In this document: piece by piece, positions 1,161 through 32,297 of the stretch
Numbering within the stretch: the stretch's first letter is position 1
Layout: every line of letters begins with the position of its first letter
UHGV virus genome: UHGV-0114133
Length of the DNA stretch: 38,826 nucleotides
Direction: 5' to 3' (one strand)
DNA from: a virus
The notes under the pieces: generated by a model
Seen by the model: only the letters and a program-made list of their open reading frames with translations
Database searches by the model: none
What the model was told of the DNA's origin: nothing
Program-made: the position numbers and the translations under genes

Positions 1161-1178
1161 ATAGATAAGTACTTACCA
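1161..1178. promoter_or_regulatory. Palindromic operator-like site (family TAGGTAAGTACTTACCTA)
   Basis: agataagtacttacca, 16 nt upstream of start codon at 1194. Confidence 0.45.
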
Positions 1179-1193
1179 ACAAGGAGAAAACAC

Positions 1194-1469
1194 ATGAAGA
1201 CTTTGGTTCGCATTTCATCTAGTACCGACTATGACGTTTACCCGTTGTTCATGATCAAGTGCGACGGGCTGAACGATGAAGAAATTCAAGCGGCAATTGA
1301 ACGCAATCTAGTTGAATACACAGGAATGGATGCGGATTCTATTTATATCGATGATGACGGTGTTTGTTGGCACAACGGTAGCTGCTGGTACGTCGACGAC
1401 ACAATGCTGGTAAGCGATGAAGACGCGGCCCATCTTGAGCGCATTTTGGGTATCAGCACTTTTGAGTGA
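1194..1469 (+). CDS. hypothetical protein (91 aa, acidic)
   Basis: ORF with AAGGAG RBS 10 nt upstream of ATG; the track ORF from 1131 is an unsupported N-terminal extension. Confidence 0.55.
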   Translation: MKTLVRISSSTDYDVYPLFMIKCDGLNDEEIQAAIERNLVEYTGMDADSIYIDDDGVCWHNGSCWYVDDTMLVSDEDAAHLERILGISTFE

Positions 1470-1508
1470 TATTTACAGCAAAAATATATAAGTTAGCATT
1501 TACCTATC

Positions 1509-1688
1509 GTGAAAATTTTATTAGATATCACGTTACTTATTATCTCGATAGCCTTTGTGCTCGACTGCATCTTCACAGGGGCAATCCGTAAAGCGCTGGC
1601 GCCTGTTAATGATGTGATGATCAATGCGCTGGCCGTAGTACTGGTCTTCGACTCAGCATTAGGCGTTTTCAAAGGAGTCGTGGCATGA
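1509..1688 (+). CDS. small hydrophobic protein (59 aa, two predicted TM segments), GTG start
   Basis: Below track cutoff; translation VKILLDITLLIISIAFVLDCIFTG...NALAVVLVFDSALGVF; stop overlaps ATG of next gene (ATGA); no clear RBS. Confidence 0.3.
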   Translation: MKILLDITLLIISIAFVLDCIFTGAIRKALAPVNDVMINALAVVLVFDSALGVFKGVVA

Positions 1689-2020
1689 AGAAAACAGCCC
1701 TGGTACTGGCGCTGCTCACTCTCCCCGTCTTTGCGGACACACATGTCTATGAGTGCGAAATGTTTGTGGTCGAAGCGAAAAACGGCCTGATCCGCAACGT
1801 CGTTAAAGCTAATTACGGCGCGATGGTTGTGGACCGTGGCGAACAGTTTTATGTGGTACGCGATGATCGCGTCCTGTCTTCCCCGTTTCTCACTAAACGT
1901 AACGGCGAACTATCTGGCGTAGGTAAAGATAGGTTCGTTTACAACAAATCGGGTGATGTATACGGCGTTCACGCGAAGAACGACAGCTACCTTTTCGATG
2001 ACTGCAAGGAGATTAGTTGA
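1685..2020 (+). CDS. secreted protein with N-terminal signal peptide (111 aa)
   Basis: MKKTALVLALLTLPVFA signal-like N-terminus. Confidence 0.6.
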   Translation: MKKTALVLALLTLPVFADTHVYECEMFVVEAKNGLIRNVVKANYGAMVVDRGEQFYVVRDDRVLSSPFLTKRNGELSGVGKDRFVYNKSGDVYGVHAKNDSYLFDDCKEIS

Positions 2021-2232
2021 TGGCGGTTACACTGACAGGTCTGGAAATCGAAAAAACAAGCGGCTACTGGCGTGCCAAAGGGTTCAAGCAGTCCGGCGTA
2101 CTGGAACGACTGGAACGTGAAGATGGGTATATTGTCCACCAGCGACGTGAATGGCGCATGTACGATCCGGAAACAGGTAAGCTCGTAACGAAGGCCGGGA
2201 CACTCTGGGGTCTGCTGAAGAAAATCCACTGA
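2020..2232 (+). CDS. hypothetical protein (70 aa)
   Basis: ATG overlaps upstream stop (TGATG); basic small protein. Confidence 0.45.
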   Translation: MAVTLTGLEIEKTSGYWRAKGFKQSGVLERLEREDGYIVHQRREWRMYDPETGKLVTKAGTLWGLLKKIH

Positions 2233-2239
2233 TAACACT

Positions 2240-2840
2240 ATCCACTGCGGTGAGTAGCCAGCTCACCGCGTGTGAATCCGGCTCATAACCACTGTAGCGA
2301 GTAGAACACCCTTCAGGTATGCACCCCAACCACTGTAGTGAGCAAACCCTCTGCCACGATATCAACTATCCACTGTAGTGAGTAAATTGGTGATTATCGG
2401 GGTCGCTATACACTGTAGTGAGTAAACAGGCGTTCACTGACTACAAACAACCACTATAGAGAGTGATGGAATGCCCCCTCCAGCGGATATCCACTATGGA
2501 GAGTAAATCTTCGCTGTTTTAAACGGATATCCACTCACTACAGTGGATAGAGGTCAAGTCAGCCAATTCTGCTCTTCACAGTGGATAGTCAACAATGAGG
2601 AGAGCGACGATAACCGCTGTAGAGAGTAGACTTAACATGGATACCCAGTGACCGCTAACCTCTCAGCCCTTGTTTTATCTATGTTTGCAACCACTAACAT
2701 TTACTTCGCGATTTGTGCGCACTGCCTACAGTGGTTATTCTTCGGTTTCTTTTACTCACTACAGTGGATATTGCATTTCCGATAAACAAAAAGGCTCACT
2801 ACAGTGGATAGTGAGCCTTTTTACTCTCTACAGTGGTTGG
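2240..2840. repeat. Iteron array downstream of repA (incA-like copy-control locus), about 14 copies in both orientations
   Basis: Repeats of CCACTGTAGTGAGTA and variants and their reverse complements (TACTCACTACAGTGG) at irregular spacing. Confidence 0.8.
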
Positions 2841-2841
2841 G

Positions 2842-3897
2842 CTATTTGCGAGCCTTTGCCTTGCGCAGCTCTTCGAGAATCGCCAGTTCTTCCTTGCTCA
2901 ACATGACCATTTCCCCGTCTTTTTCTTCAGGAGCAACATCGATAATGTCCTCCGGATCATCACCTGGCAAGATATCTTCTGGCTCTTCAGGCGTGGCCAT
3001 AGATGGCGGCAGTGCCGAACGTAACTTCGGCCGTCTATAGTGGATGACGAAGTAGACCGAGCTGCCGCGTTTCACTTCAGTGTAATCGAGATAGCCGATC
3101 TCTCGCAGCTGCTCCATCGCCTTCCTGACTGTCGCATTCTGGGTAATGGTGCGGCTGGTTAAGTTAAGTCTGGCGCGTAAGCGAGCCAATGAGATTGGCG
3201 CCGGGTCTGGTGGCAAACTTTCAATGAAGGTGTAGAGCGCCTGCGCGGATTCCTTTCTGGAGAGTTCGTTGATGGCCCGAAGTTGCAAAAGCACCTTTTT
3301 GTCGAACTGGTAAAGTTCGAAAATCTTAGGATCGGCCTTCAGTTCGACCGTGTCATTCTTGGTACTGTACTTTGCCGTCTGCACAAGGTGCGTAACGTAA
3401 TACTCTTCAGAGCCTTTGCTGCGGAATGAGATGGTGTTTGTGGCGATACGACTTAGAGAGCTGTCCAGGCGCTTACGTAACTTCGCGGACGATCTGGCTG
3501 TTGGTATGCCACAAAGTCTGACGAACTCGACGAACGGCAACGTGACGGTGTCACCAACAACCTTGTGCTTGGCGAACGCGTGGATGATGCCCACCCATGT
3601 TTTGAAATCGTTATCCATATCAAGACGAAGACCAGCAATCCTTATATCCTCGTACCCTTCGGCTTTGGCCAGAGACAGCTGTTTGAGTTCAGCGGAGGCG
3701 TCCATAGAGACCATTTGCCCCTTTCTACCCCTGGATGTCGATTTCAGCGTCGGAACGAAGAGACCAAGACGCATCAGAGCAACAGGCTGAACTGTGTTGT
3801 TGGTGTTAGGAACTAACGTAACAACTTCGCCGGTCTTTTTGTCTGTTTCGGAAAATGCTTCGCTTATCGCAATGTTTTTATTGTCGTTTACGCTCAT
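2842..3897 (-). CDS. repA: Plasmid replication initiator RepA (iteron-binding, P1/RepFIB-like)
   Basis: 351-aa ORF flanked on both sides by iteron arrays; acidic C-terminus; organisation typical of P1-type replicons. Confidence 0.8.
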
Positions 3898-3940
3898 TCC
3901 AAATGTCTCTTTTTATTCGACGGCTTGGGTGCCTTTACTG

Positions 3941-4059
3941 ATTACAGTGGATAGTAGCACCCATCACAGTGGTTATCCTACCGCCTACAGCGGTTTTTCT
4001 ACTCTCCATAGTGGTTGATTTACTCTCCATAGTGGTTGTTCTTCTCACTATAGTGGATA
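3941..4059. repeat. Origin-proximal iterons (incC-like), 6 copies immediately upstream of repA
   Basis: TACTCTCCATAGTGGTTG and variants x6, same family as 2240-2840. Confidence 0.8.
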
Positions 4060-4099
4060 TCGATAACCTCTAAAGCCATGTGGCACAACGGTTTGCAGG

Positions 4100-4185
4100 G
4101 GCCGGGGATCTCTTTGGGTCTTTGTGGTTCTCTTTGGTTCTAACAGGGATCTGAATTACTGGATCGGGCCTGTGTATAAAAATCA
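4100..4185. promoter_or_regulatory. Origin-like segment A: 3 GATC sites plus DnaA-box-like TGTGTATAA
   Basis: GATC at 4107, 4148, 4162; TGTGTATAA at 4172 is one mismatch from the TGTGGATAA consensus. Confidence 0.5.
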
Positions 4186-4338
4186 GATAATTACAAAATC
4201 AGGCATCACTCCCCTTCTGGGGATAATGTGTGATCGAAATAAACACGCCGCAACGCAAAATTTACAATATTTCCAAGAATATCAGCCATCTGCCGCAGAA
4301 AAACAGGCTCGGAGTTATCCAGTTAAAACATTGTCTCC

Positions 4339-4442
4339 TACTCACTACAGTGGATACCGACTACTCTCCAGAGAGGTTGTTTTGCTCTTCATAGCGGTTA
4401 TTATGCTCTCTACAGTGGTTATTTTGCTCCCTATAGTGGATA
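4339..4442. repeat. Second iteron cluster (5 copies)
   Basis: TACTCACTACAGTGGATA, TGCTCTCTACAGTGGTTATT and similar. Confidence 0.75.
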
Positions 4443-4482
4443 GTAACCCCTTCTCAAGCCAGTAACCGCAAGCGCTGGAGAC

Positions 4483-5546: not shown

Positions 5547-5566
5547 ATAGGTATTTACTTACTTAT
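5547..5566. promoter_or_regulatory. Degenerate palindromic operator-like site
   Basis: ataggtatttacttacttat, about 115 nt upstream of the SbcD-like gene. Confidence 0.35.
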
Positions 5567-10966: not shown

Positions 10967-10977
10967 GTTGATAATTG

Positions 10978-10997
10978 ATAGGTAAGTGCTTATCTAT
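10978..10997. promoter_or_regulatory. Palindromic operator-like site
   Basis: ataggtaagtgcttatctat immediately after the RuvC-like gene. Confidence 0.45.
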
Positions 10998-11004
10998 TAC
11001 CATG

Positions 11005-11034
11005 AGACCACTATATATAGTGGTCTTTTTAATT
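11005..11034 (+). terminator. Rho-independent terminator
   Basis: Hairpin AGACCACTATATATAGTGGTCT followed by TTTTTAATT. Confidence 0.6.
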
Positions 11035-11231: not shown

Positions 11232-12110
11232 ATGAAATTTACGAAACTGACCGATCATCTGAAACTTGCCGCAGACAAACTCGTGGGGTTTAAACCAGAG
11301 CCTTACGAGTTGAATCCCGGTTTCGGCAAGACAACGGAAAGCATCTACCTGATGGTTGACCAGTTCCACACACTGTTTCAGCACCCACGCCGTGCCATTC
11401 CAGATCCGGCATTACTGCGTCTGCGTGCCAAGCTGATCCACGAAGAAGCAGTTACCGAGGGCATCCCGGCAGCCAAAAATGGGGATATGACGGCACTGCT
11501 GGACGCGATGGCTGACTTCCTTTACGTGGGCGTCGGCACAATGGTGGCCATCAAAGGCGGCATCTCGACGGGCATGAGTTACTACACCCAAGAGCAGAGT
11601 GTTGATCGCTTCATCCACACCATCATGGTTCCGGGCAACACGGTCTTTGACGATATGGCTATCCCGTTTGAAGAAGCAAAAGAAGCTGCATTAATGCTGA
11701 ATGCGCTGGCTGACAAACTTGAAGCGAAGCCGATAAGCGATTCCGAATTGGTGCAGGAGCTGCGCCGCGTGATGAACAAAATCTACGTTGCCTGCATGAT
11801 GACCTACCGTCTGGCTGATTTTCTCGGAATCGATATTGTTGAGCTGGTGGCAGAAATCCACCGTTCCAACATGACCAAGCTGTGGCCGGCTGACGCCGAA
11901 GAGCGTCGTGTGGCGGTAGAGAATTGCAAATATGACAAGGAAGACCTGGGCTTCCGCCATGCTGAAGGGACTGACATGATGATCGGTTTCAGGGTTTCTG
12001 ATGGCAAGATCCTCAAATCTCCCACCTACAGCGATGTGGATCTGACTTGCTTTGTTGAGAAGGCGAAGTCCTCATCTCTTTACGAGATGGTAAAAAATAA
12101 TTGTAAGTGA
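11232..12110 (+). CDS. putative MazG-like nucleoside triphosphate pyrophosphohydrolase
   Basis: Two helical segments with E-x-x-E / acidic-Leu-x-D patterns (EEAVTEG...TALLDAMADFLYV; ELVQELRRVMNKIY...LADFLGID) resembling tandem MazG repeats; assignment by eye only. Confidence 0.45.
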   Translation: MKFTKLTDHLKLAADKLVGFKPEPYELNPGFGKTTESIYLMVDQFHTLFQHPRRAIPDPALLRLRAKLIHEEAVTEGIPAAKNGDMTALLDAMADFLYVGVGTMVAIKGGISTGMSYYTQEQSVDRFIHTIMVPGNTVFDDMAIPFEEAKEAALMLNALADKLEAKPISDSELVQELRRVMNKIYVACMMTYRLADFLGIDIVELVAEIHRSNMTKLWPADAEERRVAVENCKYDKEDLGFRHAEGTDMMIGFRVSDGKILKSPTYSDVDLTCFVEKAKSSSLYEMVKNNCK

Positions 12111-12173
12111 GTACTTATCATTATATATTGCCTTGGCGTGTTTTATTGTCCAAGTTCTTAATTGCTCATTGCA

Positions 12174-12253: not shown

Positions 12254-12273
12254 TAGGTATGTACTTACTTATC
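12254..12273. promoter_or_regulatory. Palindromic operator-like site
   Basis: ataggtatgtacttacttat just upstream of the thyA-like start. Confidence 0.45.
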
Positions 12274-18334: not shown

Positions 18335-18354
18335 ATAGGTAAGTATTTACCTAT
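18335..18354. promoter_or_regulatory. Palindromic operator-like site
   Basis: ataggtaagtatttacctat, 13 nt upstream of dam. Confidence 0.5.
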
Positions 18355-19393: not shown

Positions 19394-19410
19394 TAGGTAA
19401 GTACTTACCA
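19393..19410. promoter_or_regulatory. Palindromic operator-like site (near-perfect)
   Basis: ataggtaagtacttacca at the stop of the 19163 gene. Confidence 0.5.
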
Positions 19411-19987
19411 TTCAAAACGCCACTAACCAGTGATACAATCTATCCGCTTCCGGATACTTTCGGCAGCTCGACCTGATGGGTGGGGGATAGCGTCACTGGC
19501 GTCAGGTTTAAAAAAGCTCACTACCAGCGTAGAACCGGCACCGTTTAGGGGTTGGGGAAGGGGGAACCAAAGTGGGCAGAGAGAAGGGTCACTTTATGAT
19601 TGTCGAGTCTGGAGTGTTTCGAGAGGTTGAATCCAGTACTCCCCTTCATAAAGTGTGGGAAGATCTCGGTTCTGGGGTGCTGTCATCCATAACTTCCCAA
19701 GCCTAAGCTGGCAGTAGACTTAGGTCATAACTTTTCAGGTTATGAAACGACCAGGTTGGTGAGGAAATTTTGTACTCACCTCCCTGGGAGAGTATTACCT
19801 GAAAAGACAACCTCTCACTTCGTTCGAGGTGAACTTCACTCACTTCGTTCGTTCAGTTCAGGTTTTATTAAAACCTGTTCTGGGAAGTAATTTTTCTTTT
19901 CTAAAAAATTTTTAATATTTACACGCACGCGTGCGCACACGCGCGAGGGAAAAAAAAATCGTCGCGGCGCACGATTCTGGAGCCAAA

Positions 19988-20596
19988 ATGACGACCAAGA
20001 ACCCAGTCCGGCAACGCACTGGCTGCCGCACGAAGTCTAAAGCCAGATGCCAAACCCACCAGCATTCCCGTACCAATTTCAACACACCCGTAGTCGAGTT
20101 CAATCCCCAGCTCAAAACCGTAAAAGTATTCAGTGATGGCTCTTGCCTCAAAAATCCGGGCGGGCCGGGCGGTTACGGCATCGTTCTCCAGTATCGAGGC
20201 GAAGAGCGCGAGCTTTCTGAGGGCTTCCACAGCACGACCAACAATCGGATGGAGATGATGGGCGCCCTGATTGCGCTGGAGCGTCTGAAGTACCCCTGCA
20301 ACGTGATCCTGCATTCCGACAGCCAGTATCTTAAAAACGGCATGACGCTCTGGATGAAAGGCTGGAAGCGTAACGGATGGATCACGTCTGAGAAGAAGCC
20401 AGTCAAAAACGTGGATCTCTGGAAACGTCTCGACGCGGCCGCCAGTCGTCATAATGTCCGCTGGAAGTGGGTTAAAGGCCATGCAGGTCATCGCGAGAAC
20501 GAAATGTGTGACCGTCTGGCGAAGATCGCCGCCTATTCCGCAGCTGATATGCCTCACAAGCATGACATTGGGTTTTTGTCACAAAAAGATAAGTAA
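19988..20596 (+). CDS. rnhA: Ribonuclease HI with about 38-aa basic N-terminal extension
   Basis: [67 protein letters not shown] (close to E. coli RNase HI as recalled from memory). Confidence 0.85.
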
Positions 20597-20609
20597 GTAT
20601 TTACCTACT
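20588..20609. promoter_or_regulatory. Palindromic operator-like site followed by TATAAT
   Basis: gataagtaagtatttacctact overlapping the rnhA stop; TATAAT 1 nt downstream. Confidence 0.45.
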
Positions 20610-22359: not shown

Positions 22360-22419
22360 CCGTCAGTATGGACGTCCACCTTTATGTAGCGTTTGGCCAC
22401 CTTTTCAGTCACGTCACAA

Positions 22420-22449
22420 TAACACAATTGAGAAAACAACTTGTTTAAA
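22420..22449 (+). promoter_or_regulatory. Cassette leader motif
   Basis: taacacaattgagaaaacaacttgtttaaa, 19 nt upstream of ATG 22468. Confidence 0.45.
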
Positions 22450-22467
22450 AACATAAGGAAAAAACAC

Positions 22468-23028: not shown

Positions 23029-23049
23029 ATATTTATATATTAATAATAA

Positions 23050-23095
23050 TTCCTTAAGGTGGCTACAGCCTCTTAAGGAATTATTTGGCTTTTTC
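23050..23095. terminator. Bidirectional terminator between convergent genes
   Basis: TCCTTAAGG...CTTAAGGAA stem followed by TTATTTGGCTTTTT. Confidence 0.5.
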
Positions 23096-23122
23096 GCAAA
23101 TGATAAGAATTATATCGTTGTT

Positions 23123-23566
23123 TTATAAACCTGGGTCAATAATCTCATCTATGAAGTCGCGAGATTTATCGTTGAATCCCAACGCGGAGAAACGCATAAC
23201 AAGATCATTATTTTGAATCGTAACATAGTCTTTGCGCATAAATTCTCCAAAAATATATTTGATACCCTCTTTAGTGTAGGCATACCAATACATTCCTATC
23301 GTACGATCACAATTCTGATACCAACGAAGTTTCACGCCGTTGACATACATGCCTTGAGCTACGCCACTACCTGAACACTTAAAGAAATTCCGCGAAGTAA
23401 GGTAGATGTTTGCATTGCCATCCGACGTTCTTTCTAGGAACACATACCAATTACCGTCGTCTGACATTACAACAGGTCTTCCTGTTTCTGTTAAATACCA
23501 TCCTTCGGCATTAGCTGATGCTAAGCTACTGATAAACAAAAATACTGCGATAACTAACCTGTGCAT
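23123..23566 (-). CDS. secreted protein with signal peptide (147 aa)
   Basis: MHRLVIAVFLFISSLASANA signal-like N-terminus; Trp/Tyr-rich mature part. Confidence 0.6.
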   Translation of the reverse strand: MHRLVIAVFLFISSLASANAEGWYLTETGRPVVMSDDGNWYVFLERTSDGNANIYLTSRNFFKCSGSGVAQGMYVNGVKLRWYQNCDRTIGMYWYAYTKEGIKYIFGEFMRKDYVTIQNNDLVMRFSALGFNDKSRDFIDEIIDPGL

Positions 23567-23726
23567 TAATGTGTCCTTTTAATTCTGTTATATGCAGATT
23601 GAGATGCTTTGCTACGTAATTAATATTATATCTAGGTTGAGGTCAAGAATCTAATACTAGGAATTGTCAACATTAATTCTATTAACGCACCCTAATAAAA
23701 AGTATTGGTTTCTTTTAAGTTTTTTA

Positions 23727-23760
23727 GATAATAACACCAACAAGAAAACAATTTGTTTAA
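23727..23760 (+). promoter_or_regulatory. Cassette promoter/leader motif (type I)
   Basis: gataataacaccaacaagaaaacaatttgtttaa, 11 nt upstream of ATG 23771. Confidence 0.5.
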
Positions 23761-23770
23761 TGGTGCAATC

Positions 23771-25456: not shown

Positions 25457-25476
25457 TAGGTAAATGCTTACCTAAT
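25455..25476. promoter_or_regulatory. Palindromic operator-like site
   Basis: gataggtaaatgcttacctaat overlapping the methyltransferase stop. Confidence 0.45.
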
Positions 25477-25518
25477 ATATGTAAGAATATAGTGACTATA
25501 TGATAAGAGAAAAAACAC

Positions 25519-26208
25519 ATGAGCAATCTTCCGTTAGAGCGTTTTAACGTCAAAAGCCATGCCGACTTTCCTTTCAAATTTGTAATGAGAGGTTATGCAG
25601 AGGAAGCAGTAGGCCAGATCATCATTGACAAAGGCATTGTTAAGTTTGAAGGGGATTATGATGAATCCGCGAAAACATTCATAGACTTCGTTGCTAAACG
25701 TTGGAGCGAGCAATGGAGAGACCTGGAAAAACGTGCTCGTAAATTTGATACATTCATGTCTTCAATTGATACAGCAAAAACGGCTCTGGCTGCGGGTACT
25801 CCGTTAGATTTGGAGTCTCTGTTTAAAGGTGAAATGGCCTCTGCGATGTTCGCAACCATGTTTGCCGGTGAGTTTGTTCGTAGCGGGGCCAGAAACTACC
25901 TGGAGCTGGGGTACGACGTTCCTGAAATGGGTGAGTTTACCGTCACCATTCAACGCAAAGAAGGTAAGACTCCTGGCGAACGTATCGCTGAACTTGAGGC
26001 CGTTGTGGATCAGCGTAACGGCGAGTGCGTCCGTTTGATTAATGAACGTGATGCGCTGCGCGAAGAGCAGCTAAACAAAGGCTCGAACACGCGCGCGACC
26101 GCAGACATCTACTTCCAGTTGGTTGAGGAATGCCAGATCCCGCCAGGTGGCTCTTTGGTCGAGTTCGTTCGCGAATTGCAGGAGAAAGCAGAGAGGTGCG
26201 CGGCATGA
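25519..26208 (+). CDS. hypothetical protein (229 aa)
   Basis: RBS-like GAGAAAAAACAC before ATG; no recognised motif. Confidence 0.6.
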   Translation: MSNLPLERFNVKSHADFPFKFVMRGYAEEAVGQIIIDKGIVKFEGDYDESAKTFIDFVAKRWSEQWRDLEKRARKFDTFMSSIDTAKTALAAGTPLDLESLFKGEMASAMFATMFAGEFVRSGARNYLELGYDVPEMGEFTVTIQRKEGKTPGERIAELEAVVDQRNGECVRLINERDALREEQLNKGSNTRATADIYFQLVEECQIPPGGSLVEFVRELQEKAERCAA

Positions 26209-26444
26209 ATGATCTGCTTGTCGAGCGAGTCTCCGCTTTTGTTAAGTCCCCGCTGAATAATCCCCTCACCCGCGGTGAGCAGATGGAGCTGGCAAGGTGG
26301 TTTCTGCGTATCCATGAGCAGATGGAAGTTTTTAAACAGTTGCCGGATCTGCCCATTACAGACGGCCAAATTCAGTGTGCCACTTCAGTACGGTCGACGA
26401 TGACAACGACGCAAACCTGCTTTTCGTCAAATCCGAAATCATAA
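26205..26444 (+). CDS. hypothetical protein (79 aa)
   Basis: ATG overlaps upstream stop (ATGA). Confidence 0.45.
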   Translation: MNDLLVERVSAFVKSPLNNPLTRGEQMELARWFLRIHEQMEVFKQLPDLPITDGQIQCATSVRSTMTTTQTCFSSNPKS

Positions 26445-26490
26445 AGTTGCGCAGGGAGAGAGAGAAATCGACGCAGAGCAGGCCCGCAAT

Positions 26491-26706
26491 ATGTGGGACG
26501 AGGCAGAAAACGCTGATGACGTAAAAGAAAGTTGCTGCTGTTTCGGTGTCGGTAACGAACTGCTGAGTCTGTTTGGTGACGATCCGTGGTATGCCGGTTG
26601 GCCAACGGTGCCAAACCCCAGATACCAATACCTGGAACGTATCATGAACGCGGTACGTGATGGGCTGAAAGAGCTTCACAATCAGATGAGAGAAGCAATC
26701 GGTTAA
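26491..26706 (+). CDS. hypothetical protein (71 aa)
   Basis: ORF with protein-like composition; start uncertain. Confidence 0.4.
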   Translation: MWDEAENADDVKESCCCFGVGNELLSLFGDDPWYAGWPTVPNPRYQYLERIMNAVRDGLKELHNQMREAIG

Positions 26707-26744
26707 GTGCTATAGTCAGGCGCTTTTATATTTATGGAGTGAAT

Positions 26745-27443
26745 ATGAAAAATATCCTACTGGCATCATTGTTGGTGGCATCGCCGGCTGTATTTGCAGC
26801 CAGCTTTGACTGCCAAAAGGCTTCGGCAGAAATCGAACACAAAATCTGCGATAACGAACGCCTGTCAAAATTAGACGAACAACTTAGCTCTACCTATTCC
26901 AACGCACTCAAAGCAAACCCGGGGGACGCAGACGCCTTAAAGACGGTTCAGCGTCAATGGGTAAGTATGCGTGGAAAACTCACTGGTGATAAGGCTCTGG
27001 AGCTGGCTTATCTAATCCAAATTAATGGCCTCAAGAGTTTGGATGGTTCGGCCAGCACTGCGGTGGTCAATGAGACACCAAAGCCTGTGCAGAAACAGCC
27101 TGAAGTTCAGGAAAAGATAAGCAAGGCAGACACAAAGCAGGCTGAGAGCGGTAAAAAGCTAACTCTGGAGTCATTCCGAGCTAAGTATATTGAAGTTGAC
27201 GGTGAATACTACAGCACGACATCCCTTCCCAGAGGGAGTTCGTTCTTGTTCACCTGCGCAAGTCGTATCGCAGATGACCAGGTGAATATTTGGAAGAAGG
27301 TGGCAGCCAAAGAGGGCAAGATCGATCTCTTCTTTGAACTTGAGAATCGAATACATACCGCAATGCTGAATGCCAATTTTCAGAAGCTAAATAGTGATTT
27401 AACTAAAACAGGCATTTGCGATCTGATTACTGCTGTTCCGTAA
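26745..27443 (+). CDS. periplasmic protein, LprI/DUF1311-like N-terminal domain
   Basis: Signal peptide MKNILLASLLVASPAVFA, then SFDCQKA...E..IC.N..L..LD..L...Y pattern resembling the lysozyme-inhibitor LprI family. Confidence 0.55.
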   Translation: MKNILLASLLVASPAVFAASFDCQKASAEIEHKICDNERLSKLDEQLSSTYSNALKANPGDADALKTVQRQWVSMRGKLTGDKALELAYLIQINGLKSLDGSASTAVVNETPKPVQKQPEVQEKISKADTKQAESGKKLTLESFRAKYIEVDGEYYSTTSLPRGSSFLFTCASRIADDQVNIWKKVAAKEGKIDLFFELENRIHTAMLNANFQKLNSDLTKTGICDLITAVP

Positions 27444-27450
27444 GCCAGAT

Positions 27451-27471
27451 AAGGCCACTATTTGTGGCCTT
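27451..27471 (+). terminator. Hairpin of the AAGGCCAC...GTGGCCTT terminator family
   Basis: aaggccactatttgtggcctt directly after the 26745 gene; no U-tract. Confidence 0.4.
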
Positions 27472-27488
27472 AAACAATTTGTTTAATT
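27471..27488 (+). promoter_or_regulatory. Cassette leader motif
   Basis: taaacaatttgtttaatt. Confidence 0.4.
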
Positions 27489-27787
27489 AGTGGTGTAATT
27501 ATTGGAATCCCAGGCGAACTAAATCCATTGGGCAGAACAGATCTTCCACACCTTCGATAGACACGCAGTCAGAGCGGCGTAATTGTTCTTCTGATTTGCC
27601 TTCCCCACTGATTTCTCTGATTACTCCCGTTGCGCCATTCATTGCCACCATGACATGGCTGCCGATAGTGATAGCATTACGGTTTCGATCATACGCCTTT
27701 ATCGTTTTCTCCTTTCACATGGGGCAAATCAGGTTTCAAAAATTGCCGTTTTCCATGTATATGCGATTTGCAAAATATCAATTTCCT

Positions 27788-27801
27788 AAACAAATTGTTT
27801 T
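27788..27801 (+). promoter_or_regulatory. Cassette leader motif (core only)
   Basis: aaacaaattgtttt. Confidence 0.35.
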
Positions 27802-27887
27802 CACCAGCTAGTTATTACACACAGGCGAAGTTGACCGCGCTTCATATAAATATCACTGTTTATACATACAGTGTATAAGAGGAAAAA

Positions 27888-28154
27888 ATGGGCGGAAAAG
27901 ACTCAAGCTATCAGATCGTTTACAGAGGTGAGACGCTCGAAAACTTTAAACCGGGGCAGTATGTCTTCTTTCAACGAGCGAAGGAGTATGGCGGCGGATA
28001 TTGGTTGGGCAGGACTCATGAAGATGGGTTCGAGTTTTTGCTGGAGGAGCCAACCTCGCTGGGAAGAGGTTTTGAGTTTCTGATAACTCACTCGAGCGTG
28101 GAGGCCAGATTTATGGAGTTCGTCGACGATGCGGACGACTTCAAACTCACCTAG
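27888..28154 (+). CDS. hypothetical small protein (88 aa)
   Basis: GAGGAAAAA RBS before ATG. Confidence 0.55.
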   Translation: MGGKDSSYQIVYRGETLENFKPGQYVFFQRAKEYGGGYWLGRTHEDGFEFLLEEPTSLGRGFEFLITHSSVEARFMEFVDDADDFKLT

Positions 28155-28196
28155 TCATCCCTTAAACATCTTGTTTTCTGCCTTTCGTTATTTGAG

Positions 28197-28232
28197 ATAA
28201 TAATACCAATAAGAAAACAAATTGTTTAAGGA
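28197..28232 (+). promoter_or_regulatory. Cassette promoter/leader motif (type I)
   Basis: gataataataccaataagaaaacaaattgtttaagg, ending 8 nt before ATG 28240. Confidence 0.5.
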
Positions 28233-28239
28233 GTTGATC

Positions 28240-28476
28240 ATGTTCGGAACCGCAAAAGACATCATCGAAAAGCTGGAGAACTACCCAGAAGACGAGCCGC
28301 TGCTGATGGTGATGTGGCACAAGGAAGATGTAGGTGAAGTGCGACCAGACCTGACTGACGAACAGTGCGTTCAGGTTTTGCGAAAAATCAAAGAGTGCCA
28401 TGACACCAGCGTCGGCGTGAATTGGGATGTCATTTCTGACACGGCCAACATTCTGTTTCCAAAGGAGAAGGCATGA
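28240..28476 (+). CDS. hypothetical small acidic protein (78 aa)
   Basis: AGGAG RBS then ATG at 28240; track start 28222 is TTG inside the motif. Confidence 0.55.
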   Translation: MFGTAKDIIEKLENYPEDEPLLMVMWHKEDVGEVRPDLTDEQCVQVLRKIKECHDTSVGVNWDVISDTANILFPKEKA

Positions 28477-28793
28477 TGCTGAAAATCACCGAATCGTATA
28501 AGACGGCGGTGATCAGCACCGCCCACGTAACGGCAGCGGATTCAGAACGGCTACCCATTGCCTGCTTCGACCCACTTACTGATCGCGGGTTGAATTGGTT
28601 ACACGGTACACAGTACGGCTGGATTGTTCGTGCTGGAATGCGAGGGAATGACTGGAAGGAAGAACTGCGTGAGTACGGCATTTCCCAAGAGGCGATCTCC
28701 AACATACAGACCATACTGGATGACGGCTTTGACGTGGTTCACTTCGATTGCGACGCCGAGCTGGTGGATGGGCTACCTGCATGGGAATGGTGA
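28473..28793 (+). CDS. hypothetical protein (106 aa)
   Basis: ATG overlaps upstream stop (ATGA); RBS AAGGAGAAGG. Confidence 0.55.
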   Translation: MMLKITESYKTAVISTAHVTAADSERLPIACFDPLTDRGLNWLHGTQYGWIVRAGMRGNDWKEELREYGISQEAISNIQTILDDGFDVVHFDCDAELVDGLPAWEW

Positions 28794-28869
28794 TCGCCCA
28801 CTCGTTGAGTAATCATGTCATATAAGCGAAGAAAATTGGTAACATAGTACCGCTTTTTAATCTGATGGA

Positions 28870-29439
28870 ATGGATGTGATGGAAACCCAGAACCAACAAA
28901 CAAAACCTCTGAATAATGCTTATGCGTGGCTTCTAGCTTTACTGCCTCTCTTCTTTGGAGCACCGCCAGATGAGTATTTGAATTATGCAATAGTGATAGG
29001 TGGAGTCGCTGGACTCGGCTTTCTGGTGGCTGACAGAATGGCATTGTCTGATGCAGGGTATGAACCACCGGCCATCCTGTGGGGAGTATTTCTCCTTCCG
29101 GTCTATCTCTGGAAACGTGCCACCGTTACAAAAGGCAGTCGACTTCCTTTTATCGTAATCGTCGCGTTGCTTGCTGGTAACATCTTCATCGGTATCCCAC
29201 ACCAGGAAGAGGTTGCTCTTGAAGAAGCGGCTTGTCCTCTCGTAACGACCATTCTGAAAGAGAATAACGGAACCACAGCGCCGAAATGTATGAAGGTGAC
29301 AATTCAGGACAAGGTGACGGACAAGTTCTATAAAGCGACGGCTACGCTGGATAACGGCAACGACATAAACGTTACTCTGGAACTGACCGGCGAAAGAAAC
29401 TTTTATGTGCGCGTTCCGGATGCCTATCTGAACAACTAA
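28870..29439 (+). CDS. integral membrane protein (189 aa)
   Basis: Several hydrophobic segments (LLALLPLFFGA, IVIGGVAGLGFLVA, ILWGVFLLPVYLW, FIVIVALLAGNIFIGI). Confidence 0.55.
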   Translation: MDVMETQNQQTKPLNNAYAWLLALLPLFFGAPPDEYLNYAIVIGGVAGLGFLVADRMALSDAGYEPPAILWGVFLLPVYLWKRATVTKGSRLPFIVIVALLAGNIFIGIPHQEEVALEEAACPLVTTILKENNGTTAPKCMKVTIQDKVTDKFYKATATLDNGNDINVTLELTGERNFYVRVPDAYLNN

Positions 29440-29783
29440 CGGCTGCAACTCGTTGATATTGGCGGTCACAAATTGAGGATTTCTATAAGAGTCCGTTGAT
29501 CGCCACTTTCCCCACCACCCTACCCCACTCAATCCCAGGCGTGACAAGGCATTTAAGCCAATTACACCCATAAGAAAACAAATAAATAACACATCAACGT
29601 AAAGTCAACGCTTTCCCCTGATTTGGTCTAAAAAGTTGATGTTTTCGCACGCCATCTCTTATACCCAAAATCCTGTGTGCCAGAATCCATCTCCCCGCGA
29701 CCAAAGCGTCAAAAACGACTCGTGATACCACCCAAAAACAGACACGCTCAGAAGCGCTCCCGTTGCGTTATATTGGGCATCTA

Positions 29784-29816
29784 AACAAGTTGTTTTCAGG
29801 CATAAGAAAACAAGTT
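29784..29816 (+). promoter_or_regulatory. Cassette leader motif, two adjacent partial copies, with no gene downstream
   Basis: aaacaagttgtttt then agaaaacaagtt. Confidence 0.35.
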
Positions 29817-29867
29817 AACCACACCCACAGGAAACCCAGAGACGCCATTACCCACAATCCCGGAAAC

Positions 29868-29959
29868 ACCCACCTCTTCCTGTCAGGCTACCGAAAAGAC
29901 CCACCTCTTTGCCCCAGGCTACAGAGCACCCACCTAATCTCCCCAGGCAACCGAGAACG
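29868..29959 (+). repeat. Tandem triplet of about 30-bp C-rich repeats
   Basis: cccacctcttcctgtcaggctaccga / cccacctctttgccccaggctacaga / cccacctaatctccccaggcaaccga. Confidence 0.6.
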
Positions 29960-30536
29960 CAGCTCGCGCACGCAAACCCCTACACGCCATTACCCAATAC
30001 ACGGAGAAGAACAGCCAGAACGAAACCCCGGACAAACCCAGACCAGAACAGGAACCGTCGCAATCTCGTTTACCCACCATTACCCCGAAAGAGAGCGCAA
30101 ATTCCTGAATAGCAGGGAACGTCATTACTTCATATGCGGAGAACAACAAAAGCGCCCTACTGCCATTACCCACACTTCCATCAATTCACGTAAACGAAGA
30201 GAAAAGCGCACCTGCCATTACTCCATACACGGAGAAGAACAATCACCAAAACGACGAGAACAACCCAGACGAAAACACAGAGAAGAACCACCTCAAGAAG
30301 AACGAAACCACATATGCCGGTAGAAAGAACAAACCACCCATTTCACCCACAGGAATAGTCGCCGTATTGAGCGTTATCAGAGAGAAGGTTTATGCCCACA
30401 TAAGAGAGAAAATTCGTGGGAGGTATAAGTGGGAAGGGAAGGAGGGGTATCGCCACTTTCTTCGTATAAATTCAAGCCATAGTTTTCATCCCCCGTAACG
30501 TCCCTTTCCACCCCTTCGGTCAGCCTTCGGGCCATC

Positions 30537-30680
30537 CAGGGAAAAGGCCATGTCCCTTTTCAGAAACGGGAGCGTCGCCGCAGGGAAAAGGCTGGAGGTT
30601 TTTCAGGGAAACGGTGGGAATCCCGCTATACGAACCGGGAAAAGGCTGGCTGCCGGTCGGGAAACGGGTACATCCCGGTA
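30537..30680 (+). repeat. Tandem triplet of about 45-bp G-rich repeats
   Basis: cagggaaaaggc...ttttcagaaacgg / cagggaaaaggctgg...tttttcagggaaacgg / ccgggaaaaggctgg...cgggaaacgg. Confidence 0.55.
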
Positions 30681-30988
30681 CAGAGCGAGGGACGACTGCG
30701 GGAGCGGTGCGGGAAATCTTCGGGAGTGCGCCTTACTCTTCACTCGCCTGAAAATCGCGAGGGAGTGTCGTTCCCTCTCGTGCAGCTACTGGACTCCATT
30801 CTGCCAGACCATCATCGGGTCTCAAGCGATTTCAGTAGGTTTTCGGGGAGAAGGATATTCTGCCCACCAGCCCCGCGGCGCGCGTAGAGCAGAATATCGT
30901 AAATACTGGCTCCCGTGTCGTTCCCGGATATTCACTACCCAGCCTGGCTTTCCCGACATAAAATCCTTTTTCGCCTTTGTCTTATTGC

Positions 30989-31023
30989 GATAATAACACC
31001 AACAAGTAAACAACATGTTTAGA
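30989..31023 (+). promoter_or_regulatory. Cassette promoter/leader motif (type I)
   Basis: gataataacaccaacaagtaaacaacatgtttaga. Confidence 0.5.
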
Positions 31024-31052
31024 CGTTATATAAACGAAGTGAGGATGAAGAG

Positions 31053-31271
31053 ATGATTAAGATGCCTGTGACGGTTGAGGTGTGGGGCGTGGATTCCCTG
31101 GCTGAGTGTCTGGATGCCGTGGGGCCGGAGTTGTACCGCAAGTTGTGGTCGTTCGTCCCGGCAGAAGGGGAATCGCCCAAAGGGAAGGATATCTGGCACC
31201 TGCTGAGTGAAGATGAAAAGCGGGAGCTGGTGGACGCGGTACACAGCGAGTTCCCGGACGACGAAGATTAA
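31053..31271 (+). CDS. hypothetical small acidic protein (72 aa)
   Basis: GAGGA RBS 7 nt before ATG; Asp/Glu-rich. Confidence 0.55.
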   Translation: MIKMPVTVEVWGVDSLAECLDAVGPELYRKLWSFVPAEGESPKGKDIWHLLSEDEKRELVDAVHSEFPDDED

Positions 31272-31276
31272 GAGTG

Positions 31277-31300
31277 AGGCCACCAGCACGGTGGCTTTTG
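31277..31300 (+). terminator. Rho-independent terminator
   Basis: GCCACCAGCACGGTGGC followed by TTTT. Confidence 0.6.
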
Positions 31301-31371
31301 TCGCTATTAACCTCCGGGGCAGCGCAGCACCGTAACGATATACTTTGTGGCCGTTTTCTTACTGGTATTGT

Positions 31372-31402
31372 TTACGCAATTCAGAAAACAACATGTTTAA
31401 GG
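31372..31402 (+). promoter_or_regulatory. Cassette promoter/leader motif (type II)
   Basis: ttacgcaattcagaaaacaacatgtttaagg; the upstream 60 bp is homologous to 31831-31890. Confidence 0.5.
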
Positions 31403-31410
31403 ATTGCTTT

Positions 31411-31740
31411 ATGTTTGCAAATATCGACATCAACCAAATCAAGAAAATGACTCAAAAAGAGTTTGACCAGTTTTATGAGTTAGAAGGTTGGTCTTCCACG
31501 CTGATCAATTCGCGCTGGGTGCTTGAGCTGATGACTCGTGATGATGCTCCTGCTTTGATTATTTGCGACATGGGTGAAGATGCTGACTTTATGGATATGA
31601 GCGAATTTTGTGTGGACACATACAACCGCAGCCAGAAGTACTACTTCACATGCGATAGCGAGAATGACGTGATTTCTAAGCTCTATCTTCACCTTGTCCA
31701 GCATTGGGACGTGCAGGAATTCCTTGAGTTATTCGCGTAA
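31411..31740 (+). CDS. hypothetical acidic protein (109 aa)
   Basis: AAGGA RBS before ATG 31411; alternative ATG 31393 lies inside the motif. Confidence 0.55.
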   Translation: MFANIDINQIKKMTQKEFDQFYELEGWSSTLINSRWVLELMTRDDAPALIICDMGEDADFMDMSEFCVDTYNRSQKYYFTCDSENDVISKLYLHLVQHWDVQEFLELFA

Positions 31741-31863
31741 GCCCAACCAAAGCCAGCACCGCCTGCTGGCTTAACTTCTCTGTAGCCGCAGGGAAGAACC
31801 ACCTTTAGATAATTCATGTGCCTGAGCAATATGCTTTGTAGCCGTTTTTACACTGGTATTATT

Positions 31864-31893
31864 TACGCCATTGAGAAAACAATTTGTTTACGG
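31864..31893 (+). promoter_or_regulatory. Cassette promoter/leader motif (type II)
   Basis: ttacgccattgagaaaacaatttgtttacgg. Confidence 0.5.
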
Positions 31894-31900
31894 AGTGGTG

Positions 31901-32212
31901 ATGAATACTTCATTGGTGCTGGGTCTTGCTGAAGGCCAGGAGAGAAAAGAAAAACCAACCTTAATGGGGCATCTCACATTGCTGGATATCGTAGCGAATG
32001 GGACTTCTATCCGTCTGTTTCGTGAAAAAGCCATTACCTTCGACGCGGGCAATTTTACGCGCTATGTGATGGTAGTTCGTCGCCAGCGTGGAAGAGGGTG
32101 GATGTCGGTCCAGAAAATGTGGCCAGAGGACCAGCTTGAACTGGCGCTGATGGAAGCCAACCGTGTCGCCCAACAAGAGATCCAACGAGCGTCTGTTCAG
32201 GCGGTAGCTTAA
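31901..32212 (+). CDS. hypothetical protein (103 aa)
   Basis: GGAGTGG RBS before ATG 31901. Confidence 0.55.
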   Translation: MNTSLVLGLAEGQERKEKPTLMGHLTLLDIVANGTSIRLFREKAITFDAGNFTRYVMVVRRQRGRGWMSVQKMWPEDQLELALMEANRVAQQEIQRASVQAVA

Positions 32213-32246
32213 ACATGTGCAAGCAGTAGTTAGTCGAATGTACGAC

Positions 32247-32276
32247 AGCCCCGCCAATCCTTCGGGGCTTTTTTGT
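32247..32276 (+). terminator. Rho-independent terminator
   Basis: AGCCCCGCCAATCCTTCGGGGCT followed by TTTTTT. Confidence 0.65.
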
Positions 32277-32297
32277 ATTGTAAGTACTTACTTATGA
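32277..32297. promoter_or_regulatory. Palindromic operator-like site
   Basis: attgtaagtacttacttatga, about 35 nt upstream of the 32334 gene. Confidence 0.45.

Follow-up and report, generated by a model that had tools for sequence, protein, structure and literature searches.

The window analysed in this study, i.e. the whole stretch of 38,826 nucleotides of the virus genome UHGV-0114133, contains an 18-bp palindrome, TAGGTAAGTACTTACCTA, that recurs at the boundaries of its genes and operons. Our comparative analysis suggests, with a probability of roughly 0.6, that these palindromes are dispersed operators of the prophage repressor of a phage-plasmid. The candidate for this repressor is an XRE-family protein represented by CYRAN_45 of Escherichia phage Cyrano; that it is specifically this protein which would bind the sites is somewhat less probable than the operator function as such. 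A preliminary description of the window had already proposed a set of dispersed operators of a dimeric repressor, and the comparative evidence, namely the symmetry of the sites, the independence of their halves and the co-occurrence of the XRE gene, supports this proposal. As had also been suspected, the cognate repressor is not encoded in the window: the candidate gene sits about 13 kb outside of it.

Salmonella phage SSU5 is 94% identical to the window, and IncFIB plasmids of E. coli of about 106 kb, such as pBL12EC-1, reach about 99%; the window can therefore be assigned to an E. coli SSU5-like phage-plasmid. Elements of this kind are very common in clinical Escherichia, Klebsiella, Enterobacter, Salmonella, Yersinia (pMT1) and Acinetobacter, and their TerL protein matches about 960 plasmid records in PLSDB. 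The switch between lysogeny and lytic growth of the SSU5-like elements is essentially uncharacterised, and in the literature that we searched there was no description of the motif or of the control of lysogeny in this group. A defined operator and a candidate repressor may thus provide a handle on induction, immunity and curing.

Distribution of the palindrome in the window and in complete replicons

A search of the window with TAGGTAAGTACTTACCTA identified eight copies with up to three mismatches (see Table 1), as compared to 0.01 expected, and none of the 100 shuffles that served as background reached this number. The repeat is thus real, and the coordinates given in the preliminary description were correct to within 0-2 nt. 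When a position weight matrix (PWM) built from the eight copies was used to scan for weaker sites, scored in bits, further copies were found at 1489, 12104 and 32277, as well as a doubtful one at 23022 that lies within an open reading frame (ORF). The sites had been described as intergenic, and this holds: 11 of the 12 are located between genes or touch no coding sequence other than the stop codon of the preceding gene; coding sequence makes up 78.6% of the window (binomial p = 4e-7). Similarly, mapping of the window genes by similarity to annotated relatives recovered the genes that had been named downstream of the sites, i.e. those for the SbcD-like protein (5681), the MazG-like protein (11232), thymidylate synthase (12290) and Dam (18367). 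The palindrome had been called near-perfect and, at another point of the same description, perfect, but none of the window copies is perfect, and even the best one, at 18336, carries one mismatch. Nor could the grading into good and degenerate copies be maintained: the copy at 32277, which had been counted as good, has four mismatches, and the one at 5548, counted as degenerate, has three and thereby equals several of the good ones.

The palindrome had been regarded as a feature of a block of genes for replication and nucleotide metabolism. We scanned the complete genomes of pBL12EC-1, SSU5 and Cyrano and found 22, 23 and 19 sites, respectively, at a cut-off of at least 15 bits. Sites do precede the helicase/primase and PolIII-alpha clusters, and one is located in the divergent region between the genes for a UvsW-like helicase and the first ParB-like protein. 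Others, however, are found at late and lysis genes: on the TerL stop codon directly in front of the portal gene, behind the major capsid gene, between individual tail genes, and upstream of the genes for tail fibre and holin. Thus, the motif is not a feature of that block. In SSU5, of which 88% is coding, 21 of 25 sites are entirely noncoding, and for two others the overlap is limited to a stop codon. Every site flanks genes in the lytic orientation, the late genes included. At seven orthologous positions compared between the window or SSU5 and Cyrano, the motif is 0.87-0.89 identical as compared to 0.39-0.63 for the flanks. The perfect 18-mer occurs at 31 loci among 2.9 million viral contigs, and all of them are SSU5-like.

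A site in the DNA or a hairpin in the RNA

The symmetry of the site extends beyond the 18 bp: the logo reads a-T-R-A | TARGTAAGT ACTTACYTA | T-Y-A-t, with base frequencies that are almost equal on both sides, and mirror-symmetric flanks are present in distant relatives, too. The palindrome has a 7+4+7 layout, and its 4-bp centre is not conserved in the distant relatives. This layout is that of operators of the Cro/CI type.

Many copies lie at or just after a stop codon, several are located 10-18 nt in front of an ATG, and perfect copies can form a stem of 7-8 bp. The palindrome might thus act at the level of the RNA, as an intercistronic hairpin that serves as a processing site, as a stabiliser or as the target of a translational repressor. 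A protein that could play the latter role is encoded in the window, which carries a strong member of the FljA family (see Table 1), and Salmonella FljA acts on the fliC mRNA. We counted the states of the paired arm positions at 64 enteric sites and at 91 sites of distant relatives. Among the non-Watson-Crick pairs, 57 were pair-breaking, 52 were G.U and 40 were A.C in the enteric set; the corresponding numbers for the distant relatives were 84, 17 and 13. Mismatches in the arms are thus mostly pair-breaking, and there was neither a bias towards G.U wobble over A.C on the transcribed strand nor a compensatory pattern. The half-sites rather drift independently towards one consensus, which fits two protein subunits reading the DNA and not an RNA stem; moreover, the stems are conserved in sequence and not merely in their pairing. 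Of the five copies that were folded, the one at 1162 remained unfolded, and the predicted hairpin energies were weak (-0.2 to -7.3 kcal/mol). A run of T residues follows the palindrome only at the 5548 copy, and a scan of Rfam returned no family at the gathering score. The FljA-like gene is kept in the enteric SSU5-like elements including SSU5 and has a weak match (30%) in Xenorhabdus, but it is absent from the Acinetobacter relative, which carries the motif, and from phage phiK7B1. We consider an RNA-level function very unlikely. The palindrome fits a DNA site for a protein dimer.

The FljA-like protein was also rejected as a DNA binder of the sites, again because its gene is absent from the motif-bearing Acinetobacter plasmid; moreover, no motif was seen upstream of the fljA-like gene.

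Occurrence of the motif in related phages and phage-plasmids

A search with the TerL protein of SSU5, restricted to one genome per species, yielded 20 loci. Dispersed palindromes of the TAAGTMA-N4-TKACTTA family were found in elements with TerL proteins that are 57-83% identical to that of SSU5. The version TAAGTCA-N4-TGACTTA is present in Photobacterium, Piscirickettsiaceae, Chitinibacter, Faunimonas and Methylocystis (with 11 copies in 21 kb in the latter), TAAGTAA-N4-TTACTTA in Halomonas and Oxalobacter, TAGGTAT-N4-ATACCTA in Morganella and Xenorhabdus, and TAAATCA-N4-TGATTTA in Roseospira. The sites of these relatives are found at syntenic junctions: at the end of TerL, after the capsid gene and at the helicase/ParB-like genes. 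Moreover, TTAGTAAGCRCTTACTAA occurs at least 13 times in the Acinetobacter baumannii phage-plasmid pA52-1. In Rhizobium phage B1VFA, whose genome has a GC content of 60%, a stretch of 41 kb holds TAAGTAAGTGCTTACTTA 14 times, and the Rhizobium phages RHph_Y2_11, N1_10 and RHEph10 carry TMARTCAATATTGAYTKA. Among all these motif-bearing lineages, the TerL proteins are 55-67% identical.

Two relatives lack the motif. Pseudomonas phage phiK7B1 (Nickievirus, 112 kb) shares the gene order of the family and its set of replication and nucleotide metabolism genes, and it keeps the helicase, both ParB-like genes, the ATPases and the homologue of SSU5_130. A search of its 112 kb for the palindrome, with up to three mismatches allowed, gave no match, and other palindromes were not enriched between its genes either; palindromes such as GTCGA-N5-TCGAC and similar ones are intragenic and codon-driven and were dismissed. 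In Stenotrophomonas phage BUCTxx99, there was no convincing copy in the 41 kb around TerL (one match with three mismatches), as compared to 5-14 sites over equivalent stretches of the phage-plasmid relatives. The TerL proteins of phiK7B1 and BUCTxx99 are 55.7% identical, and thus no closer to each other than to those of other lineages. No plasmid replication or partition genes were seen in the annotation of phiK7B1 (whole genome) or BUCTxx99 (41 kb), whereas the Rhizobium phages carry RepC and ParA. We see the motif in five phage-plasmid lineages, whereas two relatives that were isolated as phages are without it. Since the motif-less phages share the lytic gene set and its synteny, the motif is dispensable for lytic expression. 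From its distribution, it appears to go with the plasmid-prophage lifestyle.

Two further interpretations have to be considered. First, the palindromes might be parS/OB-like loading sites of the two ParB-like proteins whose genes open the late operon, either for silencing in the manner of KorB or for the organisation of the DNA for packaging. ParB-family proteins bind palindromes as dimers, and KorB of plasmid RK2, a member of this family, uses 12 OB operators, i.e. dispersed palindromes that coordinate many operons. In the elements studied here, two proteins with a ParB N-terminal domain are kept in all relatives, and the divergent region upstream of the first ParB-like gene is among the most widely conserved motif positions. 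In contrast to what would be expected for the cognate binders, both ParB-like genes persist in phiK7B1 and BUCTxx99, which have no motif. Moreover, the region aligned to the helix-turn-helix (HTH) of Spo0J contains no convincing HTH, and the ParB-like genes are not among the genes reported as expressed in the Cyrano lysogen (PMC9928086). Such a role of the sites is thus highly improbable. Second, one may consider selfish or recombinogenic palindromes at module boundaries, similar to the PeSL of T4-like phages or to REP/MITE-like repeats, that have no dedicated regulator. The sites are indeed located at the boundaries of gene cassettes, and some of them flank variable segments, such as nrdAB, which follow the equivalent of the 10979 site in SSU5 and Cyrano and are absent in the window. 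The copies are short, however, and are devoid of target duplications and longer repeat bodies, the same syntenic junctions are occupied in lineages with TerL proteins that are 55-67% identical, and the motif changes as a unit from one lineage to another and follows the occurrence of one HTH gene. We attach very little weight to selfish repeats as the explanation, but this property could also hold as a side effect of an operator function.

The SSU5_130 protein and the two ABC-type ATPases were rejected as binders because they persist in the motif-less phages.

Many intergenic regions of phiK7B1 have a feature of their own: a GC-rich inverted repeat that differs at each site and encloses a -10-like hexamer, as in GCGCG-TATACT-CGCGC, GCGCTC-TTACAAT-GAGCGC and CGAGCGCTA-TTAT-TAGCGCTCG. 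In this promoter-region architecture, the structure is kept and the sequence is not. Examples of these repeats are located at positions 40374-40445, 42220-42292, 45943-46013, 50439-50624 and 69972-70060 of the phiK7B1 record.

Relation of the sites to promoters

The last two positions of the motif (m17-m18) form, together with the four bases that follow, the sequence TAtnAT, similar to a -10 region. At some sites, a TTGnnn ends one base in front of the motif, so that the 17-bp spacer is almost wholly made up of the palindrome; this is the case at the TerL/portal junction of Roseospira, Faunimonas, Methylocystis and Castellaniella and at the copy at 10979 in the window. At most enteric sites, a -35 consensus is absent. 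The TATAAT that had been noticed after the 20590 copy is indeed present, with one base in between. The more general suggestion that the sites overlap -10/-35 elements was borne out in part: the overlap is clear at some sites, but a paired test of the best sigma-70 score in the direction of the gene against that in the mirror direction revealed no statistical directionality in the enteric genomes (p = 0.78). For the distant relatives, the scores were 4.22 in the direction of the gene and 2.98 in the mirror direction (p = 0.03). A generic promoter scan gave values no higher than those of shuffles. Plain sigma-70 promoters were rejected as the explanation for the motif, since the two directions are equal in the enteric genomes and differ only weakly in the distant relatives.

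Several sites (1162, 18336, TerL/portal) are followed by a Shine-Dalgarno (SD) sequence and an ATG within 10-18 nt, and transcripts must therefore cross these sites. In addition, the -10-like right flank is mirrored on the left and is thus part of the symmetric site. We conclude from these sequence features that many sites probably overlap promoters and that their position relative to the promoter elements is not fixed. This fits an operator, possibly also acting as a roadblock, better than a dedicated promoter motif.

The promoter-like features have to be weighed with respect to another possibility, that the palindromes are sites for a phage-encoded activator of middle and late promoters without a -35 region, similar to Lpa of phage P1, which binds a 9-bp inverted repeat at the 11 late promoters of that phage; the XRE protein could itself be an activator or a dual regulator. 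The strong conservation of the motif over a wide phage family is what is usually seen with core lytic promoter motifs, most enteric sites combine the lack of a -35 consensus with TAtnAT at the right edge, and the distant relatives show the weak forward bias mentioned above. Moreover, the late promoters of P1 have AAGTnACTT-like repeats beside the -10 region (PMC10695390). In both cases a short palindrome is located directly upstream of a -10-like hexamer, without a -35 region and at many operons, and the P1 repeats AAGTTACTT and ATGTGACTT share the AAGT and ACTT tetramers with our motif. In P1, however, the element is 9 bp long and confined to activator-dependent late promoters, and no homologue of Lpa was found in the SSU5-like elements: when the ORFs of SSU5, Cyrano and pBL12EC-1 were all compared with P1 Lpa by phmmer, nothing matched at E < 10. 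Two phage relatives manage the same lytic genes in the same order without the motif, the -10-like right flank is exactly mirrored on the left, and at sites that abut an SD sequence and an ATG, a transcript that began 11 nt downstream would lack the ribosome-binding site. Finally, expression of the candidate binder is reported for the lysogen, a state in which the target genes are silent. Activation is thus an unlikely function of the sites, though less so than the roles discussed in the preceding sections.

A phage sigma factor was discarded as the binder because no homologue was detected in the enteric elements, so that it does not track the motif. A gene annotated as sigma-70 is located between CobS/MoxR and PolIII-alpha in the Acinetobacter and Rhizobium relatives (18432-19097 (-), 16655-17290 (+) and 16604-17239 (+)). 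Its product matches Pfam region 2 at only 0.0026, and the Acinetobacter and Rhizobium proteins do not find each other with phmmer.

An XRE-family protein as the candidate repressor

The full ORF set of Cyrano was compared with the Acinetobacter plasmid and phiK7B1. Tail-tip proteins, ParA, CobT and a single regulator are common to Cyrano and the Acinetobacter plasmid but have no counterpart in phiK7B1. The regulator is an XRE-family HTH protein of 128-139 amino acids: CYRAN_45 (CAH1234438.1) in Cyrano, WP_003980690.1 in pBL12EC-1 (26711-27100) and the product of 23292-23711 in the Acinetobacter plasmid. This is the only regulator that is common to these three elements and missing in phiK7B1. 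Neither the window nor phiK7B1 nor SSU5 contains its gene. Where present, this gene adjoins the integrase gene, and it occupies a syntenic position in all lineages: the ligase/replication-initiator region lies on one side and the CobT-MoxR-PolIII-alpha genes, upstream of which it is located, on the other.

Over the HTH, the XRE proteins of Cyrano and the Acinetobacter plasmid share 38% identity (E = 1e-13). The Acinetobacter protein passes the Pfam cut-off for HTH_3 (6.6e-9); CYRAN_45 itself has only a weak match to HTH_19. The protein has a short helical C-terminus and no S24 peptidase domain. In the AlphaFold model (mean pLDDT 72, and 85-88 for the HTH domain), the HTH superposes on that of P22 c2 (1.5 Å, 61 residues) as well as on the 434 repressor, HigA, C-proteins, SinR and Stl. 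A tblastn search with the XRE protein against 50,697 phage records gave matches only in Rhizobium phage-plasmids and E. coli SSU5-like elements. In PLSDB, the Rhizobium homologue matches 772 records, almost all of them of 95-120 kb, and their hosts (Klebsiella, Acinetobacter, Enterobacter, Yersinia, Salmonella, Escherichia and others) mirror those found with TerL.

The control region of the XRE gene contains motif-like sequences. In 12 sequence variants, with proteins that are 65-100% identical, TCRGTAAGCACTTACCAG is located at the gene's own promoter and starts at the last base of TTTACA-N16-TAATAT, and a half-site-like TAGATAAGTCTTTACAAC covers the -35 region. Motif-like sequences are also present in the control regions of the Rhizobium and Acinetobacter XRE genes.

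In a Cyrano lysogen of strain LF82, CYRAN_45 was described as a putative master repressor that is expressed at ten times the prophage background, and ciprofloxacin induces Cyrano 39-fold; the plus-strand genes expressed in the lysogen are the par operon, CYRAN_102, CYRAN_109 and CYRAN_81 (PMC9928086). There is no site upstream of the par operon, CYRAN_102 and CYRAN_109. CYRAN_81 (78657-78791) lies behind a decayed site at 78478-78495 that has lost its right half (TAGATAAGTACAAACTAT) and scores 12 bits as compared to 24.5 for the orthologous window copy at 19394. The relation between sites and expression in the lysogen thus points in the predicted direction, but it is anecdotal.

The recognition helix of the protein and the type of half-site may vary together. 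In Rhizobium phages that have the helix TQSNMVTM, the site is TMARTCA-ATAT-TGAYTKA, and in B1VFA the helix SNPNMITM with TAAGTAA-GTGC-TTACTTA. More generally, the helix begins with N-x-N in elements with half-sites of the GTAAG type (enterics, Acinetobacter, B1VFA), and it contains Q-S-N in the Rhizobium group with half-sites of the RTCAA type. This comparison across lineages provides a hint at covariation. Within the enterics, both the recognition helix and the motif are invariant, and covariation is therefore uninformative there.

A model for the silencing of lytic operons

According to the model that we favour, the XRE repressor would be made from an autoregulated promoter in the plasmid-prophage state. 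One dimer would bind each 18-bp site, which extends symmetrically to about 26 bp, and the 20-30 dispersed operators would place it at the 5' boundary of almost every lytic operon, i.e. those for replication, recombination, nucleotide metabolism, head, tail and lysis. The bound repressor would stop RNA polymerase, by occluding the promoter or by acting as a roadblock to transcription that arrives from upstream. At many sites, the operator may fill the spacer and provide the first two bases of a TAnnnT -10 region. Binding to the weaker copy over the start of its own promoter would result in autoregulation. DNA damage would probably relieve the repression through an antirepressor: as the XRE protein has no peptidase or cleavage domain, induction is likely to need such a factor. 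What the comparison shows directly is the sites with their enrichment, intergenic placement, symmetry and conservation, the co-occurrence of the XRE gene and the site at its promoter; the binding of the protein to the sites, the repression of transcription and the mode of this repression are what we infer from comparative sequence analysis. A LexA-box-like sequence, CTGTTTATACATACAG, is present in the window 16 nt upstream of a small gene (see Table 1); with 0.6 such matches expected, it is not significant on its own. If this small gene were under SOS control, it would be a natural antirepressor candidate for an uncleavable repressor.

Several observations weigh against this model. The link between the XRE protein and the sites is correlative, and SSU5 keeps 23-25 sites in spite of lacking the XRE gene. 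The contrast in lifestyle is based on two motif-less lineages, of which BUCTxx99 was covered over 41 kb. The overlap with promoters is statistically unsupported in the enteric genomes, with sigma-70 scores of 4.74 in the direction of the gene and 4.50 in the mirror direction, and about 15-20% of the sites, as estimated by eye, have an SD sequence and an ATG within 10-18 nt, so that transcripts read through them. In the Rhizobium phages, the XRE gene points in the same direction as the lytic genes. Finally, an operator that is nearly unchanged across elements of alpha-, beta- and gamma-proteobacteria would be unusual for an immunity repressor, since the specificities of such repressors normally diversify fast.

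For SSU5, the genome comparison offers an explanation. At 41776-42761, it lacks the integrase-repressor segment of about 3.8 kb between the tRNA genes and CobT; the segment with integrase and XRE genes is present in Cyrano (39268-43137), pBL12EC-1, the Acinetobacter plasmid and Salmonella plasmids. SSU5 may thus be a recent deletion derivative that is derepressed and has retained its operators, similar to mycobacteriophage D29, which is described as a lytic derivative that arose by deletion from a temperate parent (PMC5712189). It is tempting to extend this idea to the whole family of phage-plasmids of about 100 kb in alpha-, beta- and gamma-Proteobacteria, even though we would put the chance of the extended version at somewhat below even: one XRE repressor and an almost frozen operator might have been kept throughout the family, with 20-30 sites silencing both early and late operons, and repeated loss of the repressor, with or without the operators, might have given rise to virulent phages, i.e. 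Nickievirus, the Stenotrophomonas phages and, as a recent D29-like deletion mutant, SSU5. The large number of operators would then explain why the specificity has barely drifted.

If the operators and the candidate repressor are as proposed, the lytic behaviour of SSU5, which makes it usable in cocktails, would be explained, and one could predict which relatives are safe for therapy, because they lack the repressor, and which are not. The elements would represent a natural regulon with many operators and an evolutionarily constrained specificity, and global silencing from dispersed sites, as known for P1 and the cluster A mycobacteriophages, would extend to a third, unrelated type of repressor.

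Comparison with known systems

The closest logic to the dispersed palindromes is that of the stoperators of mycobacteriophage L5 and other cluster A phages, in which one prophage repressor acts at some 26-30 sites throughout the genome. These stoperators are located in short intergenic gaps, also inside early and late lytic operons, and their binding silences the prophage globally (PMC9283540). The cluster A sites are asymmetric 13-bp sequences that are bound by a monomer via two different domains, and their action depends on their orientation with respect to transcription; in contrast, the palindromes of 18-26 bp described here are suited to a homodimer. The cluster A and phage-plasmid repressors are not related in sequence, and the block of elongation has been shown for L5 but is a conjecture in our case.

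P1 is, like the SSU5-like elements, an enterobacterial plasmid prophage, and its master repressor C1 has operators at separate lytic operons over about 90-100 kb. Its induction proceeds via antirepressors and not via cleavage of the repressor. P1 has 45 transcription units (PMC10695390), and Op sites are annotated at pmgT, lpa, c1 and coi. C1 differs from the candidate described here in that it is a 283-aa protein unrelated to XRE with asymmetric operators of 17 bp. The late genes of P1 are controlled indirectly via Lpa, whereas in the SSU5-like elements the same palindrome also precedes the genes for head, tail and lysis.

The lambdoid repressors P22 c2 and 434 provide a further parallel: they share the small N-terminal HTH domain, the palindromic operator and the autoregulatory site at the own promoter. 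The 18-bp operators of P22 consist of two 7-bp halves around a 4-bp centre. The lambdoid phages, however, concentrate their operators in two or three regions beside the immunity gene, and their repressors carry a C-terminal domain that can be cleaved with RecA; the phage-plasmids have about 20-30 dispersed sites and no S24 domain. In the case of KorB of RK2, the similarity lies in the ParB-like genes of the family, and the difference in their persistence in relatives that are devoid of the motif.

Copies of the palindrome and other features of the window

The individual copies and their surroundings are listed in Table 1, together with the other features of the window.

Table 1. Palindrome copies and further features of the window, with positions counted from its first nucleotide. 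Mismatches refer to TAGGTAAGTACTTACCTA; bit scores are from the PWM scan.
Feature	Position	Mismatches; score	Context
Copy TAGATAAGTACTTACCAA	1162..1179	2	ATG at 1194, 14 nt downstream; SD AAGGAG directly after the copy
Weaker copy TAAGTTAGCATTTACCTA	1489..1506	4; 18.9 bits	Between ORFs 1194-1469 and 1509-1688; kept in SSU5 and Cyrano
Copy TAGGTATTTACTTACTTA	5548..5565	3	SbcD-like gene (5681) 115 nt downstream; sigma-70-like match TTTACT-18-TATCAT begins within the copy
Copy TAGGTAAGTGCTTATCTA	10979..10996	2	12 nt past the RuvC-like gene; embedded in TTGATA-17-TACCAT, followed by terminator-like hairpin 11004-11027
Degenerate copy TAAGTGAGTACTTATCAT	12104..12121	5; 14.8 bits	Overlaps the MazG-like stop codon; inside promoter-like match TTGTAA-17-TATATT
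Copy TAGGTATGTACTTACTTA	12254..12271	2	Thymidylate synthase gene (12290) 18 nt downstream; terminator-like hairpin 12173-12196 upstream
Best copy TAGGTAAGTATTTACCTA	18336..18353	1; 28.4 bits	ATG of Dam methylase (18367) 13 nt downstream
Copy TAGGTAAGTACTTACCAT	19394..19411	2	Directly after the stop codon of 19163-19393; last base opens promoter-like match TTCAAA-17-TACAAT (with TG), 19411-19439
Copy TAAGTAAGTATTTACCTA	20590..20607	2	Overlaps the RNase H stop codon; followed by c + TATAAT
Copy TAGGTAAATGCTTACCTA	25457..25474	2	Directly after the DUF4942 methylase-like stop; next gene 44 nt away; TGTAAGAAT downstream kept in SSU5 and Cyrano
Weaker copy ATTGTAAGTACTTACTTA	32277..32294	4; 17.5 bits	Directly after a terminator-like hairpin; followed by t + GATAAT; 39 nt before gene 32334
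FljA-like ORF	36695-37207 (-)		PF03614 'repressor of phase-1 flagellin', E = 1.9e-73; PHROG 'transcriptional repressor'
LexA-box-like CTGTTTATACATACAG	27856-27871		Upstream of small gene 27888-28154
Second dispersed element	22420-22460, 23696-23772, 28165-28241, 30958-31034, 31338-31412, 31829-31903, 33475-33548, 33996-34036		Within 21449-34036; positions are examples
Iterons CCACTGTAGTGAGTA	2238-2630, 2533-2851, 3927-4452		Flank repA, 2842-3897 (-)
HNH endonuclease ORF	15981-17003 (-)		340 aa; HNH_2, 7e-11
31-bp direct repeats (CACCCACCTCTT..CAGGCTA)	29860-29957 and 33893-33953		Two clusters 4 kb apart
Inverted repeat pair	35119-35143 / 35378-35402		25 nt, 92%; flanks small minus-strand gene 35143-35364
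Inverted repeat pair	33371-33397 / 33843-33869		27 nt, 96%; brackets a short segment

The copy at 10979 and the terminator-like hairpin behind it mark the boundary of a deletion or insertion: nrdA and nrdB, which are located between the RuvC-like and MazG-like genes in SSU5 and Cyrano, are missing in the window (10966-11232).

In addition to the palindrome, the window contains a second dispersed element, which consists of a promoter-like block (..GATAAT..) followed by ACACCAACAAGAAAACAAnnTGTTTAAGGAG, a palindrome (AAACAAnnTGTTT) located immediately upstream of the ribosome-binding site. Many small genes in the accessory or early region are preceded by this element; the TAGGTAAGT palindrome is rare there. 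This element looks like a second regulon, and the nearby FljA-like regulator is a candidate for its control. A different repeat, an iteron of about 20 bp, is present in about 20 copies in both orientations on the two sides of repA; this region is the origin and copy-control region of the plasmid.

The HNH endonuclease ORF lies between the gene for a 3'-5' exonuclease and the next gene. pBL12EC-1 and SSU5 have no such ORF at this place, which makes the insertion of a homing endonuclease probable. Direct and inverted repeats are listed in Table 1. Finally, the similarity to the RNase H of SSU5 reaches upstream of the ORF start at 19931 (19829-19930), and an in-frame stop codon interrupts this N-terminal extension in the window.

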